A stretch of 64,000 bases of DNA from Acidobacteriota bacterium (GTDB taxonomy: Bacteria; Acidobacteriota; UBA6911; RPQK01; JAJDTT01), in assembly GCA_965263035.1 (NCBI GenBank), contig OZ253580.1:64001-128000 (forward strand), written 5' to 3'. The notes below the pieces were generated by a model. That model ran no database searches and was not told the DNA's origin. It worked only from the letters and a program-made list of their open reading frames with translations. Position 1 is the stretch's first letter. Every line of letters begins with the position of its first letter. Below, piece after piece: positions 21,135 through 58,600 of this stretch. Position numbers and translations under genes: made by a program.

Positions 21135-24100
21135 CTAATTCAGATACACGAATTCACTCGAGGCCATCAATGCCTGGCAGAATCCCTGCCAGGATCGGAG
21201 GCGGCGTTCGCCGGGCTCTTCCACCCGTTCCCCCCAGCTTGCATCGATGCGGGCCACGAACTCCAGGGCCTGCCGGGATTCCTTCTCGTCGGGCAATCGG
21301 CCCAGGGCGCGTTCGTAGGCCACGCGGATCCGCCCGGTTTCGTCCAGGTCTTCCCGGGCCAGGAGCTGCGACGCCATCCGGCGCGAGTTCTGCAGCACGA
21401 GAGTATCGTTCATGATGAACAGGGCCTGGGGAGCCACCACGCTGGCGCCACGATCCCCATCCGTCACCGACGGGTCGGCAAAATCGAACGCCCGCAGGAA
21501 ATCGTACATGGAACTGCGTACCACCGGAAGATAGACCGACCGTCGATTCCAGTCGTAACGGATCCCGGGACGGATGTAAGACCGGCCGTTTTGGCCCAAC
21601 AACGATCCTCCCGGCTCCAGGTCCAGGTTGGCGGAAACGGCCAGGATGGAGTCGCGAAGCGCCTCGGCTTCCAACCGGCGCCGGTTCATCCGCCAAAGCA
21701 AGCGATTCTCAGGATCCTTTCCGGATCCCTCCGGGGAATAGCGGCTGCTCATCCGATACGTGGCCGAAAGCATGATCAGACGGTGCATCCGCTTCAGGGA
21801 CCAGTTCCCCTCCACGAACCGGATCGCCAGCCAGTCGAGCAAATCGGAGTGAGTGGGTGTGTCGCCCAATCGGCCGAAGTTGTCGGTGGAGGCGACGAGG
21901 CCCCGTCCCATGTGCCAGCGCCAGATCCGGTTGACCATGACCCGAGAAGCCAGGGGGTTGTCCTCGCGGGTCATCCAATCCGCCAACTCCAGACGTCCGC
22001 TGAGTGCCGGATCCCGCAGCTGTTCCGCCGATTTGCGACCCAGACCCGGAAAGCCGCGGGGCACCTTCTCTCCCAGGTCCCAGTGGCTGCCGCGCAGATG
22101 GATGGCCAGATCGTCGATCTGCTTGCCCTCGGTGACTCCCATGGCGCTGGGAAGCTCGGGCAGGCCCTCCTCCAACTTCGTCCGCCCCTCTTCCAGGGCC
22201 TCCAGGTCCCGTCGAGCGGCCTCGGGAAAGTACTCGGTGGTCTCCTGGGGCGGCCGAAAGGGCCCCCACTTCTCGTAGAGGATCGCCCTCATGGCTTCCA
22301 GAGCCGGATCCTCCAGCTTGGTCTCTTCGGTCTCGTCGTCGGTCCGAACCGTGCTGAATTTCCTGCCGACGATTTCCCGTTCTCCCACCAACGCCTGCCA
22401 GGCCTCCTCGGCCCGCCGGAACTGCTCCTGGTAGTGGCCGGCCAGCTCCGTCAGGCCGGCCGCCTCAAGATCCTCGAAGAGTCTGGCCGCCGGCGACTGC
22501 CACCCCTCCCACGATTTCTCCTGGGCCAGAGCGTGCCAGGCGTACAGCACCGAATAGGGCGCCCCGTGGCTCCGGCGCAGGCGGTCGATCCACTGCTGCA
22601 GGAAGACCGGATTCAGATCGTCCCGATGGGCCACCTGGATCAGGGTTCTGGGGATGGGAGCTCCGTCCGGAAAGGGATTGGGGGCGAACAGCAGCTTCTC
22701 GAAATAGGGATAGCGGTTCTGGTGCTCCAGTCGGAGTGTGTTGTGTCCGGCGTTCAGGTCGAAGATCCCGGCCACCAGCCAACCGCCCGCATCGGGCGAG
22801 GCCGTCCGGTTTTCGATGGCCTCGATCCCGCGCTTGACCAGGGTGCCGTTGAGGTGGATATCGGCGGTTCCGGCACCCGTCTCGGCTTCCAGAAACTCCA
22901 ACTGGTAGGGGCCGGCGGCGGGGACCTGGACGTCATATTCGGCGAAATAGGCGTCGGGAGGCGCGTCGGAACTCCCGGCGTCGGGGACATTCGTCTTTCC
23001 CTTCTTCAGCTGCCGCTCGACGTTTCCCCGGTCCCAGCTCCCCGCCTCCCGTACGGTGAGGGATTCGGGTTCGGGATTCCGTCCTTCGAACACGCTCCTG
23101 AGCCGGATCTTTTCGTAACCGGCCAACTCCTGCGCGGCCAGCAGATAGGCCCCCACCCGGGTGCGGCCCTCCTGCGCCAGCTTCCGGTTCTCCCGCTTGG
23201 TGATGGCTTCGATGGCCTTGGTCTTGGCCTCGATCTTCTCCCGCTGCTGCTGCAACCGGAGGCGGTCGTCCGCCGGAGCCAGGACGTGCTCATGCCACTC
23301 GGCCACCACCGTGTGGTGTTCCATGGTCTTGGAGCTCCTGAAGATTCCAGCCAGGGAGTAGTAGTCCCGAATCGAGATGGGATCGAACTTGTGGTCGTGA
23401 CAACGGGCGCAGCCCATGGTCAGCCCCAGGAAAGCCCGAAAGCTGGTGTCCAGCTGTTCGTCGATGATGTCCATCCGCATCTTCACGGGGTCGTCTTCCG
23501 CCAGCATCTTGGGACCCAGGGAGAGGAATCCGGTGGCCGTCCAGTGCTCCAGCGTGGTCTCCAGATCACCCGAATCGGGCAGGAGATCTCCCGCCAGTTG
23601 CTCCCGCACGAACAGATCGTAGGGCTTGTCCCGGTTGAAGGCCTGGACCACGTAATCCCGATAGCGGAAGGCAGTCGTATACGCCATGTTCTCGTCCAGC
23701 CCGTTGGAATCGGCGTAGCGGGCCACGTCCAACCAGTGGCGGCCCCAGCGCTCTCCATAGCGGGGCGAGGCCAGGAGACGTTCGATCAGCCGGGAGTAGG
23801 CTCCCGGCGACCGGTCCTGGAGGAAGTCCCGGATCTCTTCGATGGTGGGGGGAAGACCGGTCAAATCGAAGGTGGCCCGCCGAATCAGGGTCCGCCGGTC
23901 GGCGGCCGGGGCCGGCTCCAGCCCCTCGGCTTCCAAGCGGGCCAGTATGAATCGGTCGATGGGAGAACGAACCCAGTCGGCTCGACGGACCGTCGGCCGG
24001 GTGGGTTCCACCGGAGGCTCGAACGCCCAGAAGCTTTCCGTCCCGGAGGTCGTTGGGTCCGGATCGGCAGCCACGCCCCAGGGGGCGCCCATCCGGACCC

Positions 24101-24452
24101 AATCGGTGAGCAGGGCGATTTCCTCATCCGGAAGCCGGCCCGCAAGGGGCATGCGCAGCTTCTCGTCCCGATGGGTGACGGCACGAATCAGCAGACTCGA
24201 CTCGGGGTCGCCGGCGACGACGGGGGACCCGCGGCTGCCTCCCTTCCGGAAGCTCTCTTCCTGGTCCAGGATCAGCCCGCCCATGACCGGCTGGCTGGAG
24301 CTGGAGTGACACGCATAGCAGTGCCGGGCCAGGAGCGGACGGATCTTTTTCTCGAAATACTCGCCGGCGTCCGCCGGACCGGCAATGAGCGGCTGGGAAA
24401 GCAGCACCGCAAGCAGCCACAGCGCAGGAAATCTCCGGTTTCCCAAATCCAT
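21135..24452 (-). CDS. PSD1/DUF1549/DUF1553 cytochrome c protein with a central beta-sandwich (CBM-like) insert
   Basis: [35 protein letters not shown] insert, NRIWRWHMGRG. Confidence 0.9.
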   Translation of the reverse strand: MDLGNRRFPALWLLAVLLSQPLIAGPADAGEYFEKKIRPLLARHCYACHSSSSQPVMGGLILDQEESFRKGGSRGSPVVAGDPESSLLIRAVTHRDEKLRMPLAGRLPDEEIALLTDWVRMGAPWGVAADPDPTTSGTESFWAFEPPVEPTRPTVRRADWVRSPIDRFILARLEAEGLEPAPAADRRTLIRRATFDLTGLPPTIEEIRDFLQDRSPGAYSRLIERLLASPRYGERWGRHWLDVARYADSNGLDENMAYTTAFRYRDYVVQAFNRDKPYDLFVREQLAGDLLPDSGDLETTLEHWTATGFLSLGPKMLAEDDPVKMRMDIIDEQLDTSFRAFLGLTMGCARCHDHKFDPISIRDYYSLAGIFRSSKTMEHHTVVAEWHEHVLAPADDRLRLQQQREKIEAKTKAIEAITKRENRKLAQEGRTRVGAYLLAAQELAGYEKIRLRSVFEGRNPEPESLTVREAGSWDRGNVERQLKKGKTNVPDAGSSDAPPDAYFAEYDVQVPAAGPYQLEFLEAETGAGTADIHLNGTLVKRGIEAIENRTASPDAGGWLVAGIFDLNAGHNTLRLEHQNRYPYFEKLLFAPNPFPDGAPIPRTLIQVAHRDDLNPVFLQQWIDRLRRSHGAPYSVLYAWHALAQEKSWEGWQSPAARLFEDLEAAGLTELAGHYQEQFRRAEEAWQALVGEREIVGRKFSTVRTDDETEETKLEDPALEAMRAILYEKWGPFRPPQETTEYFPEAARRDLEALEEGRTKLEEGLPELPSAMGVTEGKQIDDLAIHLRGSHWDLGEKVPRGFPGLGRKSAEQLRDPALSGRLELADWMTREDNPLASRVMVNRIWRWHMGRGLVASTDNFGRLGDTPTHSDLLDWLAIRFVEGNWSLKRMHRLIMLSATYRMSSRYSPEGSGKDPENRLLWRMNRRRLEAEALRDSILAVSANLDLEPGGSLLGQNGRSYIRPGIRYDWNRRSVYLPVVRSSMYDFLRAFDFADPSVTDGDRGASVVAPQALFIMNDTLVLQNSRRMASQLLAREDLDETGRIRVAYERALGRLPDEKESRQALEFVARIDASWGERVEEPGERRLRSWQGFCQALMASSEFVYLN

Positions 24453-24694
24453 CGAGTCCTCCCCGGACGTGAGGGTATACGCTACCTGATTTTAACATTG
24501 AGAGTCTGAGAAATTCAGCCGCCAAGCCAAGTCCGGACTTTCCCCACAGGAGGGGGGACATCCCTGTCCCCCATTGGCGACTTTCTTGTCGCCTGTTCTT
24601 CTAAGTTCCCATGCGATTCGGTGGCCGGAAAGTGTAGAGTGGGGACTCCGTCCCCCCTAGACCCCCCTAATCGGCGGCAAGAAAGCCGCCGCTC

Positions 24695-25324
24695 GTGCGC
24701 CCGACATGGGCTGTATCTAAGGGATGAAAGATCCCAAGGGAGGTGATGGGACCAACCCTAGCCGAACCGCAAGGCGTAGCCGCGAGGTGAAGCTGAAGGA
24801 AGCGGAAGGCAAACCCACGACCGCAGGAACACGAACCGGCAGTGAGGCCGGGTGCGGGCGGTGATCTGGCGAGCAACAGCGAAACCCGAACCCCATCCAG
24901 ACGTACCAGGTAGAGCCGGGCAGCCCGGGGGGAAAGATGCAGCACCTTACTCGGGGAGATCTCAAGGGTGAGAGCCTTTGAGAAGTCAGCAGAGGTCATA
25001 GTAGCGAAGAAGCCGGATAATGCCGGTGGAGCGAAGGACCGAAGGAGTCGGACTGGCCCTATGGTGGACTCGTCAGCGGGATCGCAACTACCTCCGGAAA
25101 CGGGGCGGGGGGAGGCCCCTCGGACCCGGCACGGAAGGCCCAAGGGTGGAACCCGTCAAGCCGGAAGGGCGGAGATCAAGTCCCAGCGGCGGCGAAAACC
25201 GGAAAGAAAGGCCCTTTACGAGGCTCGAAAGAGCCTCGAGTGACTCCAACCGCCGGATACTGAAAACGGTACGTCCGGTGGTGTGGGAGGGTGCAGGGGC
25301 GCAATCCCCTGCACTCGACCCGAT
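24695..25324 (+). ncRNA. ORF-less group IIC intron, 630 nt
   Basis: 5' GTGCGCCCG; GAGAAGTCAGCAGAGGTCATAGTA (DII/III); DIV stem GGAGTC/GACTCC; short DV AACCGCCGGATAC..GTACGTCCGGTGGT with CGC triad; DVI ending ACCCGAT; inserted just after a hairpin. Confidence 0.9.
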
Positions 25325-25336
25325 CTTTAGAGACCT

Positions 25337-26016
25337 TTTATTATCAATGGCAAAAAATGGGGTCACAATTTGCTATTGATAGCAAAATTTGCATGAAGGA
25401 AGAGTGGGGGACAAGAATGTCCCCCACTTCTGAGAGGTCCTTTTCTGGAAAAGGAGGGGACCGTATTAGGAGGGGACTGTCCCCACTTTACGTGTCCCGT
25501 GTCCATCCATCCGACCGCCGCGCGAGCGGTCAGCGCCCAGGAATCCGGAGCCGGAAGGAGGGAGGCATGAGGGGACCAGGTCCGGCCGCGGGAGCCCCCG
25601 TGGCGGTCGCTCCGCTCCCTTCACGGGGGCTCCCGCGATGTGTGCAATTTTCAGTGGCCATTGACATGTCCTTTATTACGGACTGTCCCCAATTTAGAAG
25701 GAGCACCCACTTTAGGAGGAGTAAGAGCGTATGTAGGAGGGGACTGTCCCTACCTCTATGCGCCCGGGAGGGGACAGTCTGGATCGCGACGAAGCAGTCC
25801 CATTCCCGTGCTCCGGCCTAACCGGAGCGACGTAGGGGCACCCCTTGTGGGTGCCCGCTGTCGTCCCTTACTGAGCGGCCCGGGGACGGCGACCACACGT
25901 AAGGAGGGGACTGTCCCCACTTTAGTAGAGAGTTGGGGGTTAAAAACGCTCGCTCCTAGGGACTATTTTTGCTATCAATAGCAAAAACTCGTTCATTTTT
26001 CGCCATTAATAGCAAA
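25337..26016. repeat. Segment bounded by ~50-bp imperfect inverted repeats, containing GGGGACTGTCCCC repeats and a GTAG-type REP
   Basis: TTGCTATTGATAGCAAAA (25370) vs TTTTGCTATCAATAGCAAAA (25967); AGGAGGGGACTGTCCC at ~25468, 25735, 25902; GTAGGGGCACCCCTTGTGGGTGCCC at 25832. Confidence 0.65.
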
Positions 26017-26209
26017 TTCTGGCGAACACGCTGAGGTTGGACCGGCAGTGGTGGCTTCCCTGCCACCGAATTTTCAATGGAGCTTGGGGGAATGGGCGAC
26101 TGGAAAGTCGCCCCTACTGAGAGGGCCCTTCCTGGAAAAGCGTCTCCGAATCGGGTAAGAATGAAGCCGCTTCCCGGGGACGCGCGCCGTCTCCCCCTCC
26201 GGACTCTCT

Positions 26210-27967
26210 ATGCGATCACGAAAGAGCAGGAAGAAGCCCTCTCTCACCACCGTCCGCTACGCCTTCAAGAAGATCATCTGGCCGCGCCGCAAGCTGCTCC
26301 TGTTGGGATTGGCCCTGATCCTTCTGAACCGCATGGCGGGACTCGCCCTGCCCGCCGCCAGCAAATTCCTCGTCGACGACGTGATCGGAGAGGGGAATAT
26401 CGAGCTGCTCCGGACTCTGCTGGCCGGCGTGACGGTGGCCATCGCGATTCAGTCTTTCAGCTCCTTCTTTCTGACCAAGCTGCTGAGCGTAGAGGCGCAG
26501 CACCTGATTTCCATGCTCCGGGCGCAGGTCCAGCGCCACATCATCAATCTGCCCATCCGGTTCTTCGACAACACCAAGTCGGGCGAGTTGGTCTCCCGGA
26601 TCATGACCGACGTGGAGGGCGTCCGGAACCTGGTCGGCACGGGCCTCGTCCACCTCTGCGGCGGAGTCCTGACCGCCATCGGCTCCCTCTTTTTCCTCTT
26701 CAGAATCAGCGTTCTGATGACGCTCTACACCCTGGTTCCCCTCACCGTCCTCGGGCTGATCTCGCTCAAGGCCTTCGGCCACATCCGGCCCATCTTCCGC
26801 GAAAGGGGCAAGATCACCGCCGACGTCACCGGACGCCTCGCCGAATCCCTGGGCGGCATCCGGGTCATCAAGGGGTTCAGCGCCGAGCGGCAGGAGATCA
26901 GCGTCTTCGAAAAGGGGGTGGCGAGAATCTTCGACAACGTCCGGAAGTCCCTCACCGCCACCAGCCTGGTCACCAGCGCGTCGACCCTGCTTCTGGGCCT
27001 GGCCAGCGTGGGGATCATGGGTCTGGGGAGCTCCATGATCCTGGAAGGCGAGATGACGGTGGGAGACTTCGTCTCCTTCACCCTCTTCCTGGGATTCCTC
27101 ATCACTCCCATCGTGCAGATGGGCAACATCGGCAGCCAGATCACCGAGGCGTTCGCCGGCCTCGACCGGAGCGAAGAGATCCTGACGACGGCTCGGGAGG
27201 ACGACGACCCGGGCCGGACCGTGGTCCTGCCGGACGTGGAAGGCCACATCGTCTTCCAAGACGTGACCTTCTCCTACGAGCCGGGAAACCCGGTGTTGAC
27301 GGAGGTGAGCTTCGACGCTCCGGCCGGGAGCGTGACGGCCCTTGTGGGAAGCTCCGGATCCGGAAAGACCACCCTGGCCGGCCTGGCGGCCTCCTTCCTG
27401 AAGCCGGACCGGGGCCGGGTCCTGGTCGACGGCCGCGACCTGTCCACCGTGACCCTGGAATCGTACCGCTCGCGGCTGGGGGTCGTGCTGCAGGACGACT
27501 TCCTGTACGAGGGGACCATCCGCGAGAACATCCTCTTCGGCCGTCCCCAGGCCAGCGACGAGGAGCTTCTGGAAGCGGTGCGGGCTTCCCACGTCAAGGA
27601 GTTCACCGACCACTTCGACGCGGGACTCGAGACCCTCATCGGAGAGCGGGGCGTGAAGCTCTCGGGAGGCCAGCGCCAGCGGGTCTCCATCGCCCGCGCC
27701 CTGTTGGCCGATCCCAGGATCCTGATCCTGGACGAGGCCACCTCCAACCTGGACACGGAGAGCGAGCTCTACATCCAGCAGAGCCTGACCGGGCTGATGC
27801 AGGGACGCACCACCTTCGTCATCGCCCATCGACTCAGCACCATTCGCCAGGCTCATCAGATCCTGGTGGTGGAGGCGGGCGAGATCGTGGAACGGGGAGA
27901 TCACGAGGAACTGATCCGGCGACAGGGACGCTACTACCAGCTTTACACTTACCAGGCGCGAATCTGA
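26210..27967 (+). CDS. ABC exporter, fused permease/ATPase (MsbA/MdlB-like)
   Basis: GSSGSGKT, LSGGQRQR, ILDEATS. Confidence 0.95.
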   Translation: MRSRKSRKKPSLTTVRYAFKKIIWPRRKLLLLGLALILLNRMAGLALPAASKFLVDDVIGEGNIELLRTLLAGVTVAIAIQSFSSFFLTKLLSVEAQHLISMLRAQVQRHIINLPIRFFDNTKSGELVSRIMTDVEGVRNLVGTGLVHLCGGVLTAIGSLFFLFRISVLMTLYTLVPLTVLGLISLKAFGHIRPIFRERGKITADVTGRLAESLGGIRVIKGFSAERQEISVFEKGVARIFDNVRKSLTATSLVTSASTLLLGLASVGIMGLGSSMILEGEMTVGDFVSFTLFLGFLITPIVQMGNIGSQITEAFAGLDRSEEILTTAREDDDPGRTVVLPDVEGHIVFQDVTFSYEPGNPVLTEVSFDAPAGSVTALVGSSGSGKTTLAGLAASFLKPDRGRVLVDGRDLSTVTLESYRSRLGVVLQDDFLYEGTIRENILFGRPQASDEELLEAVRASHVKEFTDHFDAGLETLIGERGVKLSGGQRQRVSIARALLADPRILILDEATSNLDTESELYIQQSLTGLMQGRTTFVIAHRLSTIRQAHQILVVEAGEIVERGDHEELIRRQGRYYQLYTYQARI

Positions 27968-47714: not shown

Positions 47715-47787
47715 TGGGCCGTGCTGGGATCGAACCAGCGACCCTCTGCTTAAAAGGCAGATGCTCTACCGACTGAGCTAACGGCCC
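47715..47787 (-). tRNA. tRNA-Lys(TTT)
   Basis: GGGCCGTTAGCTCAGTCGGTAGAGCATCTGCCTTTTAAGCAGAGGGTCGCTGGTTCGATCCCAGCACGGCCCA; CCA not encoded. Confidence 0.97.
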
Positions 47788-55600: not shown

Positions 55601-58600
55601 GCGACTCGTAGCCCACCCGGATCCCTGTCTCTCCGTACTCCGCCGCTGGACTCACCGTCAGCCGAACCTCACTCCCGGTCACCTGAACCCGGGTCACGGT
55701 GCGCGTCTCGTTGCCTCCCGCCACGGTGAAGTCGCTGGTCGCCGGCCGCGAAGAGGTGTTGAGCCGTTCGTTGTAGGTCAGCGTCAGCGTCGCGCCGTTG
55801 ACCACCGCCGGATCGGTCAGTGCCAGGACCGGGGCGACCGCGTCCACCTTGTGGCTTGAGCTGGCCGCCACCGCATTGTGGTCCAAGGTGGCGTCATTCT
55901 GTGCACCGTCGCGGATCATCCCGCCGCTTCGCGACAGCCCGTTCGCCTCGATGCTCACGCCGTCCTCGTCGTTGTCCCCAGTGACCACCCGGTAGGTGAA
56001 CTTCACCGCCCGGTTCGTGACGCTCTGGTACTCTGCCGTCTGGTCCCGGCTGCCCACGTTCAGGGTCAGTTCGGGCGTTCCCGTGATCACCAGCGTCTCG
56101 TCGAACGTCACCGTCACTTCGATGGTCTCGTCCACGCCGTAGGTCCGGTCCGACCCCGCACTCGAGGTGATCGCCACGGTGCTCACCGTCGGCCCCGTCG
56201 TGTCTCCCGTCTGGTTCGCGACGCTCCTGTTGCTCAACCGGTCCGCATCGTTGCCCGCCGTGTCCTGAATCGGATTCAATCCCGGCTGGTAGTTCACCCG
56301 GAGGCCGCTCTCTCCGTCCGTTACTGCCGAGCTCAGCGTCAGGAAAACGGCACTCCCGTCGACCCGAACTGCCCTGACCGTCCGCGTCTCGCTCCCTCCC
56401 GTCACGGTGAAGTCGTCCGTCGACGGTCTCGAAGAGGAATCCAGCGGCTCGCCGTAGGCCAGCGTCAGCGTCGTCCCGTTCACGACTGTCCCGTCGGACG
56501 TCGCCAGCACCGGCTTGACCCCATCCACCTTGTGGCTCGAATCGGCCGCCACCGGCGCGTGGTTCAGCACGGCGTTATTCTGGGCGCCGTCGCGGATCGT
56601 GCCGCTGGACAGGCGGTTCGCCTCGATCCTCACCCCGTAAGCAGCACTGTCCCCAGAAACCACTTTGTATTCGAACCTCACGTCGGCACCCGTGACGTCC
56701 TGGTAGTTGGCCGTCCGGCTCCGGCCGCCCACGTTCAGCGTCAACCGCGGCGTCCCCGTCACTAACACCGTCTCGTCAAACGTCACCGTCACTTCGATGG
56801 TCTCGCCGGCTGCATAAGTCTGATCCGACCCTGCGTTCGAGGTGATCCTCACCGTCTGCACCGTCGGCCCCGTCGTGTCTCCCGTCCGGTTCGTGACACT
56901 CTGATTGCTCAAAGCGACTGCGGCGTTGCCCACCACGTCCCGGATCGGGTTCGTTCCCGGCTGGTAGCTCAGCCGGAAGCCGAACTCTCCGTCTTGCACC
57001 GCCGGACTCAGCGTCAGGAGTACCGCGTTTCCGTTCACCTGCACCCGGGTGACCGTGCGCGTCTCATTCCCTCCCGTCACGGTGAAGGCGCTCGCCGCCG
57101 GTCTCGAGGACGAGTTCAGCGGCTCGCTGTAGGCCAGCGTCAGCGTCGTTCCGTTCACCACCGCCCCGTCCGTCGTCGCCAGGCTGGGCTTGACCCCATC
57201 CACCTTGTGCCGCGAATCGGGCGCCACTGCTGCATGGGTCAACGTCGCGTCATTCCGGGCCCCGTCGCGGATCGTCCCGCTTCCTCGCGACAGGCTGTTT
57301 GCGTCGATGCTCACGCCGTCCCGGTCCCGGTCGCTCAAGACGACCTTGTACTCGAACTTGACGGTGGAGCCCGAGACGCTCAGGTATTCCGCCGTTCGAT
57401 TCTGTCCGCCTACGCTCAGCGTCAACCGCGGGGTCCCCGTCACCACCACCGTCTCGTTGAACGTCACGGCCACCTCGATGGAATCATCCACGGCGTAAGT
57501 TGAATCCGACCCCGTGCTCGAAGTGATCCTCACCATCTCGACCGTCGGTCCCGTCGTGTCTCCCGTGACGTTGGTGACCGAGCGGTTGCTCAACCGGTCC
57601 GCATCGTTGCCCGCCGTGTCCTGAATCGGATTCGATCCCGGCTCGTAGTTCACCCGGAGGCCGCTCTCTCCGTCCGTGACTGCCGAGCTCAGCGTCAGGA
57701 ATACGGCACTCCCGTCGACTCGGACTACCGTGACCGTCCGTGTCTCACTCCCTCCCGTCACGGTGAAGTCGTCCGTCGAAGGCACCGAAGACGAATCCAT
57801 AGGCTCGCCGTAGACCAGCGTCAGAGTCGTCCCGTTCACGACCGCTCCGTCGCTGCTCGCCAGCGTCGGCTTGACCCCGTCCACCTGGTGTTGAGAATCG
57901 GCCGCCACCGGCGCGTGGTTCAGCACGGCGTTATTCTGTGCGCCGTCCCGGATCGTGCCGCCGGACAGGCGATTCGCGTCGATCCTCACCCCATAAGCAG
58001 CACTGTCCCCAGAAACCACTTTGTATTCGAACCTCACGTCGGCACCCGTGACGTCCTGGTAGTTGGCCGTCCGGCTCCGGCCGCCCACGTTCAGCGTCAA
58101 CCGCGGCGGCGCCGTCACCACCACCGTCTCGTCAAACGTCACCGTGACCTCAATGAGATCATCCATCGCGTAGGTCTGATCCGACCCCGCATTGGAGGTG
58201 ATCCTCACCGTCTGCACGGTCGGCCCCGTCGTGTCTCCCGTGTTGTTGGTGACCGGTTCGTTGTTCAACTCCTCCGCGGCGTTGCCCACCGTGTCCTCGA
58301 TCGGGTTGTCCCCCGGCTGGTAGCGCAACCGGAGGCCGCTCTCTGTGTCCGTTACGGCCGGGTTCAACGTCAACAAGACCGAGTTTCCGCTCACCTGGAC
58401 CCGGGTCACCGTCCGCGTCTGACTGCCCCCGGTCACCGAGAAAGCGCTCGCCGCCGGTCTCGAGGAAGAGTTCAGTGGCTCGCTGTAAGCCAGCGTCAGC
58501 GTCGTCCCGTTCGCCACTGCTCCGTCGATAAGGGCCAGCATCGGGGGCACCCCGTCCACCTGATGCCGCGAATCGGCTGCCACCGCCGCGTGCTCCAACA

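Follow-up and report, generated by a model that had tools for sequence, protein, structure and literature searches.

A probable non-autonomous group IIC intron behind REP-type hairpins in an Acidobacteriota genome

How does a group II intron that encodes no protein come to stand behind a repetitive extragenic palindromic (REP) hairpin, and is it a relic or a mobile element? The question is raised by a locus in a 64,000-nucleotide stretch (the window: positions 64,001 to 128,000 of contig OZ253580.1) of an Acidobacteriota bacterium, whose genome is a single contig of 6.198 Mb with 62% G+C. The intron occupies window positions 24695–25324 on the plus strand, is 630 nt long, contains no open reading frame (ORF), starts with GTGCG and ends with GAT. 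It sits in a 1.7-kb spacer (24453–26209) between two divergent genes, at 21135–24452 (minus strand) and 26210–27967 (plus strand). The initial annotation offered two readings, a non-autonomous retroelement mobilised in trans or a minimal self-splicing ribozyme. Judging from sequence comparison, we consider the first probably right: the element would be a non-autonomous group IIC intron retroelement, spliced and mobilised by a protein supplied in trans.

The conserved ends of group II introns (5′ GUGYG, 3′ AY) are both present in the window copy, as GTGCG and GAT. Rfam models were run at gathering thresholds and then with E-value thresholds. Two of them match over their full length: RF02001 (group-II-D1D4-3; 76 bits, gathering 32) at 24776–24943, model positions 1–170 of 170, and RF01998 (group-II-D1D4-1; 47.2 bits, gathering 35) at 24946–25039, model positions 1–84 of 84. 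Since their E-values on the whole window are 2e-13 and 2e-5, and since the genome holds 23 more copies, the match exceeds chance. The model of domains V and VI (RF00029) also aligns end to end, at 25248–25324 (positions 1–77 of 77, 39 bits, E 6e-6, gathering score 40), and both the domain V hairpin and the bulged A of domain VI are visible in the sequence. At the position of the catalytic triad the intron has CGC where RF00029 has AGC; a CGC triad is typical of class C introns. The ribozyme ends described in the initial annotation are in place, domains V and VI probably so, and the Rfam search that it proposed recovers domains I–III in full at gathering thresholds. Its span of 24672–25330 marks a real element but takes in the hairpin and 6 nt of downstream sequence along with the intron itself.

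Domain IV, described earlier as about 200 nt long with a closing stem and without a reverse transcriptase (RT) ORF, answers to that description: it measures 207 nt (~25040–25246), contains a stem of 8 perfect base pairs, capped by GAAA, at 25219–25238, and none of the four mechanically listed ORFs overlapping the intron has a Pfam match at E≤0.1. An alignment fold of six domain IV sequences predicts 47 pairs, of which 10 show compensatory changes, at a covariation term of only −0.72 kcal/mol, which suggests, though not decisively, that the 5′ arm of the domain is structured.

The window copy belongs to a family. A blastn search of the genome with the hairpin plus intron returned 30 segments, comprising 19 intact ORF-less copies at 95–100% identity, three ORF-less copies split by insertions (two by a 1.78-kb insertion sequence (IS) with an rve-type transposase, one by 4.7 kb), two ORF-bearing copies 1.87 kb long, with 1.24 kb in place of positions 540–563, and one fragment of 77 nt; ORF-less copies number 22 and ORF-bearing copies two. 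The 5′ end is GTGCG in 18 of the 19 intact copies and GTACG in one. In domain IV the same junction, GAGGCTC-GAAA-GAGCCTC, is found in 22/22 ORF-less copies, and alignment of the two intron forms sets the limits of the deletion at ~8 nt before the ATG and ~9 nt before the stop, with the TGA kept. Ten of the 19 intact copies lie within 0–1 change of the consensus, two of them identical to it, and the remaining nine differ by 3–33 changes. The initial annotation had named a single degenerate copy as the mark of a relic; what the genome holds is 22 ORF-less copies that share one junction, more than half of the intact ones almost unchanged. Variable columns per 100 nt among these 19 copies are fewest in domain V (2.6; one column in 38), followed by domains II–III (4.3), domain I (6.4), domain IV (10.6; 22 columns in 207) and domain VI (15). 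Between the ORF-less and ORF-bearing forms, domains I–III are almost identical, the first part of domain IV has diverged, and a block of ~45 nt (~25131–25175) is nearly invariant.

Some observations on the damaged copies are recorded here. The fragment, at genome positions 56917–56993 just outside the window, consists of the hairpin and the first ~55 nt of the intron at 88% identity. The 1.78-kb insertions, in the copies at 3067604–3070031 (L025) and 3923177–3925615, lie in opposite orientations at intron positions ~287/299 and 368–373, and encode a 342-amino acid (aa) transposase (rve, HTH_21, rve_3) that is IS3-like by its domains; the insertion at 368–373 has a 6-nt overlap resembling a target duplication. 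In the third split copy (5180434–5185639), ~4.7 kb replaces intron positions 144–287 and contains a 694-aa ORF, an ORF with a P-loop motif and, at 5180883–5181170, a weak DnaA-family AAA+ match.

A likely helper for the ORF-less copies is at hand in the two 1.87-kb copies. Both have an open frame of 497 codons, in which a probable start at MEQVV, with the motif GGGAGAGG upstream of its ATG, gives a protein of 408 aa. This protein contains the Pfam domains RVT_1 (3.7e-38) and GIIM, and YADD is present; its Pfam matches, confined to these two domains, include no endonuclease domain. It scores 362 bits against TIGR04416 (cut-off 300), and its best relative in the Protein Data Bank is the GsI-IIC RT (448 bits, residues 1–393). 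The assignment to class C is drawn from the RT domains without an endonuclease and from the GsI-IIC RT as best match, and it agrees with the class given by the initial annotation. The search for further copies and for a IIC RT gene, which the same annotation had recommended, has therefore yielded both: 23 additional copies and two intact cognate RT genes.

The genome also contains a second, unrelated group II intron family, represented by four more ORFs with a GIIM domain, at 983763, 5056630, 5538413 and 5842998 (L031–L034), three of which are open over 438–471 aa and one of which has 231 aa. The RT of this family, rather than the cognate IIC RT, might be thought to act as helper, the more so as the congener G001 (one contig, 99% complete), with its one ORF-less copy, lacks the cognate RT, and its best RT match, 36% identical, is of the distant type. 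However, the RT of the one ORF analysed from the second family (426 aa) shares only 34% identity with the IIC RT, its partner ribozyme is of a different structural type (it matches Rfam D1D4-4), and G001, equipped with only such an RT, has not gone beyond one copy. We regard a helper from this other family as highly improbable.

The same data bear on whether the copies are fossils, left by a past spread of an intron that is now inactive together with its helper and decaying beside the REPs. Nine of the 19 intact copies have drifted from the consensus (by a distance that the analysis also gives as 6–33 bases), three more copies are broken by insertions, G001 keeps its lone copy without a cognate RT, and no spliced or empty-site joint occurs among the contigs of the sequencing runs compared below. 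Such decay would be at odds with ten copies within 0–1 change of the consensus and two identical ones, with both RT frames open and YADD intact, and with a nearly invariant domain V. A fossil family is thus unlikely, though it is the most serious of the competing explanations, and we continue with the reading of a non-autonomous intron mobilised in trans.

If the element is mobile, its insertion sites should disclose what it recognises. All 24 copies are placed after a hairpin plus GCTC, of which the G is in every case the last base of the stem; in the window, CTC at 24692–24694 lies between the target hairpin and the intron. Stem types differ from site to site with compensating changes (CGGCGGC, CGGCGAC, CGGGGG, GGGGGAC, GGCCATC). 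The 3′ flanks are unrelated except for the first base, C, the boundaries are exact at GTGCG and GAT, and there are no larger duplicated blocks around the copies, the flanks past the REP being unrelated. Among 334 empty extragenic sites with a hairpin and CTC (gene context throughout comes from a purpose-written gene-calling script, which is crude), 170 end in G and 148 in C; the preference of the introns for G, 24/24 (Fisher 3e-7), agrees with four base pairs formed between GCTC and GAGC at 24871–24874, the putative exon-binding site 1 (EBS1), GCTC then being the intron-binding site 1 (IBS1).

This pairing is supported by covariation, both within the genus and beyond it. GAGC as EBS1 goes with GCTC exons in the window genome (G000, 24 copies) and in G004 (two copies), and GAGG in the same loop goes with CCTC exons in the same-genus genomes G001 (one copy), G003 (six) and G008 (one); the six copies of G003, five ORF-bearing and one ORF-less, all have GAGG after CCTC. 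For a wider comparison, 79 loci were kept from an RT search with 596 confirmed candidates, and among these the 40 that were non-identical and had their 5′ end mapped supplied 26 distinct combinations of EBS1 and exon. All four positions pair in 14 of these, three in 10 and two in 2, that is, 90 of 104 positions, whereas 5000 shuffles averaged 34 and never exceeded 54. The EBS1 that the initial annotation had picked out, GAGC at 24871–74, is thereby confirmed at both depths of comparison. Distant relatives (in records titled Alicyclobacillus, Burkholderia, Paraburkholderia and others) have sites with a hairpin plus T-run and an A-rich EBS1, and the Acidobacteriota clade of relatives has GC-rich hairpins without T-runs. 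REP-type targeting may be general across this Acidobacteriota intron clade.

Two further sets of sites deserve mention. In Bryobacterales, related ORF-bearing IIC introns (L052–L068, L120–L125) occur many per genome, with at least 10 loci in one 7.4-Mb record. They stand behind hairpins that are rich in GC, lack a T-run and terminate in GCCA, TCCA or GCTA; the hairpins are frequently arranged as doublets. In the window genome, the copy at 436206–436835 follows a non-REP hairpin, GGCCATC...GATGGCC plus GCTC, and lies antisense in a frame that, with the intron deleted in silico, is open over 365 codons and has a third-position G+C of 0.81; this copy probably disrupts a gene.

The comparison of congeners also illuminates the history of the ORF. 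Domain IV is closed by GAGGCTC-GAAA-GAGCCTC in G000 and by GAGGTCC-ATC-GGACCTC in G008; in G003 the first four codons are fused in frame to the last eight, and G001 is intermediate. As the closing stems differ between species, loss of the ORF at the base of domain IV was either recurrent, or old and later remodelled; it may thus be a recurrent or a long-lived feature of the genus.

The initial annotation held that the target hairpins are REPs rather than terminators. We scanned the genome for perfect stems of at least 7 bp with a loop of 3–9 nt and found 8553 hairpins, whose commonest 3-nt tail is CTC (498; next 278), with CTCC after 355. Of the 498 hairpin-plus-CTC sites, 352 are extragenic, and their stem classes are CGGCGRC, GGGCGRC, GGGGGAC and CGGGGG; loci of the GGCGRC type number 351. 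The family thus runs to hundreds of hairpins, oriented either way and frequently paired as doublets, with a shared head that reads CTCC or GGAG depending on the strand. TTTT within 8 nt after the stem occurs at one of the 170 empty GCTC sites and at 59 of the 8553 hairpins overall, so that the hairpin with a U-run that marks an intrinsic terminator, and that is usual but not universal for class C introns, is nearly absent from these sites; nor is there a T-run behind the target hairpin of the window, as the initial annotation had observed. The identification as a repeated extragenic family without T-runs therefore stands, while a terminator role is not fully separable from it: 227 of the 352 extragenic sites lie at most 150 nt from a gene 3′ end, and class C insertions after U-less ‘I-shaped’ as well as U-tailed terminators are mentioned in the portion of Miura et al. 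(2022) available to us. The REP hairpins may also act as U-less terminators.

The genome also has two Y1_Tnp loci resembling REP-associated tyrosine transposase (RAYT) genes. On either side of the locus at 3477688–3478478 (L128) stands the doublet [GGAG-GGGGGAC hairpin][CGGGGG hairpin-CTCC]; its coding sequence falls into separate ORFs of 94 and 127 aa, suggestive of a frameshift. The second gene, in the 2482813–3487 region (L129), is whole (224 aa), with REPs ~670 nt away and confined to one side; the best model for its protein is the REP-associated tyrosine transposase model NF047646, at 73.9 bits against a cut-off of 80. We find it about equally probable as not that an Acidobacteriota lineage of class C introns has specialised on REP/REPIN (REP doublet forming hairpin) homing sites, reading the GGAG/CTCC head as IBS1 and the palindrome as the hairpin, and hopping between REP subfamilies by the exchange of GAGC and GAGG in EBS1.

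Does the intron follow the REPs or the genes beside them? Relative to the intron, the upstream and downstream genes at occupied sites lie on the same and the opposite strand in nine cases, both on the opposite strand in eight, on the opposite and the same strand in four, and both on the same strand in three. This context mirrors that of the empty sites, which indicates that the intron follows REPs, not genes. It bears directly on the possibility that the host retains the ORF-less RNA for a function of its own, say as a module for self-splicing or RNA processing at the ends of genes, and that selection accounts for its numbers. Most sites do adjoin gene 3′ ends, and ORF-less forms with different closing stems are present in at least four species of the genus; but context and orientation at occupied sites are those of empty REPs, the upstream gene is on the other strand in 12 of the 24 cases, an opposite-strand gene lies downstream in 17 of the 24, and the occupied loci are not conserved as a set, with copy numbers across species of 24, 1, 6 and ~2. 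A host function of this kind is very unlikely, and the earlier alternative of a minimal self-splicing ribozyme, taken with a role for the host, finds no support.

Replication orientation distinguishes the intron from its targets. The dnaA gene lies at 2,872,067, close to the minimum of the cumulative GC skew at 2,873,574, and the terminus was placed in three ways, at the skew maximum (5.54 Mb), at 5.7 Mb and opposite the origin (5.97 Mb). With these placements the sense strand of the intron is co-directional with the fork in 19, 19 and 20 of the 24 copies, against 84, 81 and 80 of the 170 empty GCTC sites (Fisher 0.008 for 19/5 versus 84/86, and 0.0009 for 20/4 versus 80/90). The bias corresponds to the geometry predicted for insertion into the lagging-strand template with the nascent lagging strand as primer. 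Lagging-strand-primed insertion has been reported for endonuclease-less introns. The bias also affects the possibility that the copies spread at the DNA level, through recombination or gene conversion between REPs or through the REP transposase, instead of by retrohoming. Copies that abut a repeated element, in a genome with a RAYT-like gene, might be expected from such a process. It would hardly produce exact GTGCG and GAT boundaries in all copies with the REP on the 5′ side only, or stems that vary by site beside a 4-nt exon end that matches EBS1 and covaries with it across species; moreover, the orientation bias is not seen for the REPs themselves, and one copy stands at a non-REP hairpin. 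DNA-level spread accordingly has very little probability. A strong strand bias of class C introns has also been described, with strand naming that is ambiguous in the part of the paper we could draw on (Miura et al. 2022).

Retrohoming in trans therefore remains the preferred reading, and the mechanism we propose for it is modelled on the known IIC pathway. An RT-encoding IIC intron of an Acidobacteriota lineage would have lost almost exactly its ORF, a short stem closing the gap, and the compact ribozyme would then have reached at least 22 sites, compared with two for the ORF-bearing parent. The RT/maturase encoded by the two intact copies would bind the transcribed intron RNA and splice it, and the resulting ribonucleoprotein (RNP) would reverse-splice into single-stranded DNA immediately 3′ of a DNA hairpin, which it would recognise by the shape of the hairpin and by the 4-nt IBS1 GCTC through EBS1 GAGC. 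The nascent strand at the replication fork would prime cDNA synthesis. A one-base change in EBS1, GAGC versus GAGG, would suffice to switch between REP subfamilies with stems ending in G and in C.

We also compared contigs over 24200–25900 from the metatranscriptome runs X15 and X17 and from X12 and X14, whose library type is unrecorded and which we read as DNA. Intron contigs are present in both RNA libraries, with a word depth in X15 of ~160–500 on the intron versus 0–4 on the flanks; in X12 the depth is ~90–130 versus 4–9, about as ~24 copies predict. Contig depth cannot rank expression and the RNA libraries may hold DNA, so we draw no conclusion on transcription. The loose ends after 24694 all lead to other loci, which are empty REP sites elsewhere. 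A joint of 24694 to 25401 in X12 was rejected: its shorter side is only 24 nt long and ends in another REP, and we take it for a REP-to-REP artefact.

Several points weigh against our interpretation. The contigs of these runs contain no joint of 24694 with 25325, spliced or empty, although contigs cannot show absence. The RF00029 score falls 1 bit short of its gathering threshold, a single-sequence fold of domain IV shows no extra stability over shuffles (z = −0.77), and everything said about gene context inherits the weakness of the gene calls. Over their first 540 nt the ORF-bearing copies share only ~92% identity with the ORF-less form, with the differences mostly in 5′ domain IV, where divergence might alter RT binding. 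The orientation bias could alternatively come from selection after insertion. The window copy in particular has three private changes, at 24843, 24865 and 24922, of which that at 24865 abolishes the basal G-C pair of the EBS1 stem, and it is among the 4–5 copies in the minority replication orientation. With these features, and in a spacer between divergent genes, the window copy itself may be inert.

The features of the locus are collected in Table 1. The spacer is unusually long, with REP-type hairpins at 24553, 24576, 24638, 24672, 25403, 25472, 25900 and 26094 and AT-rich palindromes at 25364–25391 and 25966–25987. Scans of 24300–26300 gave two promoter-like sites (shuffle mean 0.4), at the intron 3′ edge or downstream of it, and five terminator-like sites (shuffle mean 2.7); none of these accounts for transcription of the window copy. 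Elsewhere in the window, a tRNA gene lies at 47715–47787 on the minus strand (Rfam tRNA, 75.6 bits).

Table 1. Intron, intron domains and hairpins of the spacer, in window coordinates
Feature	Position	Strand	Basis or remark
ORF-less group IIC intron, GTGCG...GAT, 630 nt	24695–25324	+	Sequence, Rfam matches, genomic copies
REP-type hairpin GGGGGACA-N4-TGTCCCCC	24553–24572		Stem class among genome-wide hairpin+CTC stems
REP-type hairpin GGCGAC-TTTCTT-GTCGCC, target family reversed	24576–24593		87 exact genomic copies
REP-type hairpin GGGGAC-TCC-GTCCCC	24638–24658		Same upstream motif at most other intron copies
Target hairpin in 5′ exon, 7-bp stem CGGCGGC/GCCGCCG, loop AAGAAA	24672–24691	+	42 perfect genomic copies followed by CTC
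IBS1 GCTC, last stem base + CTC, final 4 nt of 5′ exon	24691–24694	+	24/24 copies; covaries with EBS1
Distal domain I	24776–24943	+	Rfam group-II-D1D4-3, 76 bits, full model
EBS1 GAGC, loop GCGAGCAA closed by CTG/CAG	24871–24874	+	Reverse complement of GCTC 24691–24694; covariation
Domains II–III	24946–25039	+	Rfam group-II-D1D4-1, 47.2 bits, full model
Domain IV, ORF-less; ~180-nt 5′ part common to ORF-bearing copies; ~25131–25175 nearly invariant across species	25040–25246	+	
Deletion scar: stem CGAGGCTC/GAGCCTCG capped by GAAA, replacing 1.24-kb RT ORF; old stop TGA follows	25219–25238	+	
Domain V; CGC at catalytic-triad position 25251–25253	25250–25281	+	RF00029 alignment; 1 variable column in 38 among 19 copies
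Domain VI, candidate bulged branch A at 25318, 7 nt from 3′ end	25285–25321	+	RF00029 alignment; branch A from sequence
First 3′-exon base C, candidate IBS3	25325	+	C in 18/19 intact copies and 149/170 empty GCTC sites
Downstream REP-type hairpin AGTGGGGGACA-N4-TGTCCCCCACT	25403–25428		

The system shares with the class C introns B.h.I1 and GsI-IIC a small ribozyme, an endonuclease-less RT, a site 3′ of a stem-loop and an IBS1 of 3–4 nt. It departs from these terminator-type introns in its use of REP-like stem-loops with a CTC(C) tail and an IBS1 of GCTC or CCTC that is not T-rich, and in the ORF-less state of the copy studied here. The IIC-attC introns, a IIC sub-lineage retargeted from terminators to the attC stem-loops of integrons (PMC3001079, from the part of that work at hand), are another case of IIC introns on a repeated DNA stem-loop other than a terminator; the present introns instead target a family of chromosomal REPs, with no sign of an integron context.

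Trans mobilisation has its closest parallel in the TeI3 introns of Thermosynechococcus elongatus. According to the sections of Mohr et al. (2010, PMC2882425) on which we rely, the ORF-less copies there share one ORF deletion with identical break-points in 17 copies, outnumber the ORF-bearing ones, and were shown experimentally to be mobilised in trans by a related intron-encoded protein (IEP). As far as those sections go, both systems have a single shared deletion (17 copies there, 22 here), a majority of ORF-less copies, and sites with good EBS/IBS pairing. TeI3, however, is not of class C, its diverged families occupy different EBS/IBS-matched sites, no hairpin target is described for it in the same sections, and the in trans mobility that is experimental there is predicted here. 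Bacterial ORF-less introns are rare and nearly always found alongside a related IEP-encoding intron, as summarised in reviews and in the survey of Simon et al. (2008), the latter as relayed by PMC4424553; B.c.I7 of Bacillus cereus E33L, for instance, has three near-identical copies beside one complete copy, in the account that we could draw on. In comparison with B.c.I7 and the other surveyed ORF-less introns, the copy number here is far higher, 22 to 2, and, unlike in the surveyed introns, the ORF-less form recurs in several congeners with differently closed domain IV stems.

REPs are known targets of mobile elements. The portion of Tobes and Pareja (2006, PMC1525189) available to us names ISPpu9, ISPpu10 and IS1397, as well as a group II intron of Pseudomonas putida KT2440 with two of nine copies at REPs. 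In contrast to that intron, as described there, 23 of the 24 copies here are at REP-type hairpins, and the sequences themselves show how EBS1 pairs with the REP head. In the literature searched, these two of nine P. putida copies were the only REP-associated group II intron, and nothing was found on group IIC introns together with REP sequences; an earlier mention elsewhere, for example in subscription journals, is possible in either case.

Thus, IIC introns on stem-loops are known, as are ORF-less introns mobilised in trans in a cyanobacterium. What appears to be new, from the comparisons made here, is a REP-specialised IIC lineage, an ORF-less form that outnumbers its putative helper 11 to 1, and a natural one-base switch of target. 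The ORF-less intron is not a new kind of element but a parasite of a parasite, which apparently borrows the RT of its two sister copies. The system should be useful for studying the recognition of DNA hairpins by IIC RNPs, the origin of non-autonomous retroelements and their competition with helpers, and the interplay of two classes of mobile DNA that each use single-stranded hairpins. Furthermore, the case indicates that group II introns are undercounted by RT-based surveys in phyla such as Acidobacteriota. If the lineage has indeed specialised on REPs, the genome harbours a three-tier chain of parasites, made up of the RAYT/REP system, a IIC intron on the REPs and an ORF-less intron using the RT of that intron, and all three tiers would take advantage of hairpins in the exposed single-stranded DNA of the lagging-strand template.

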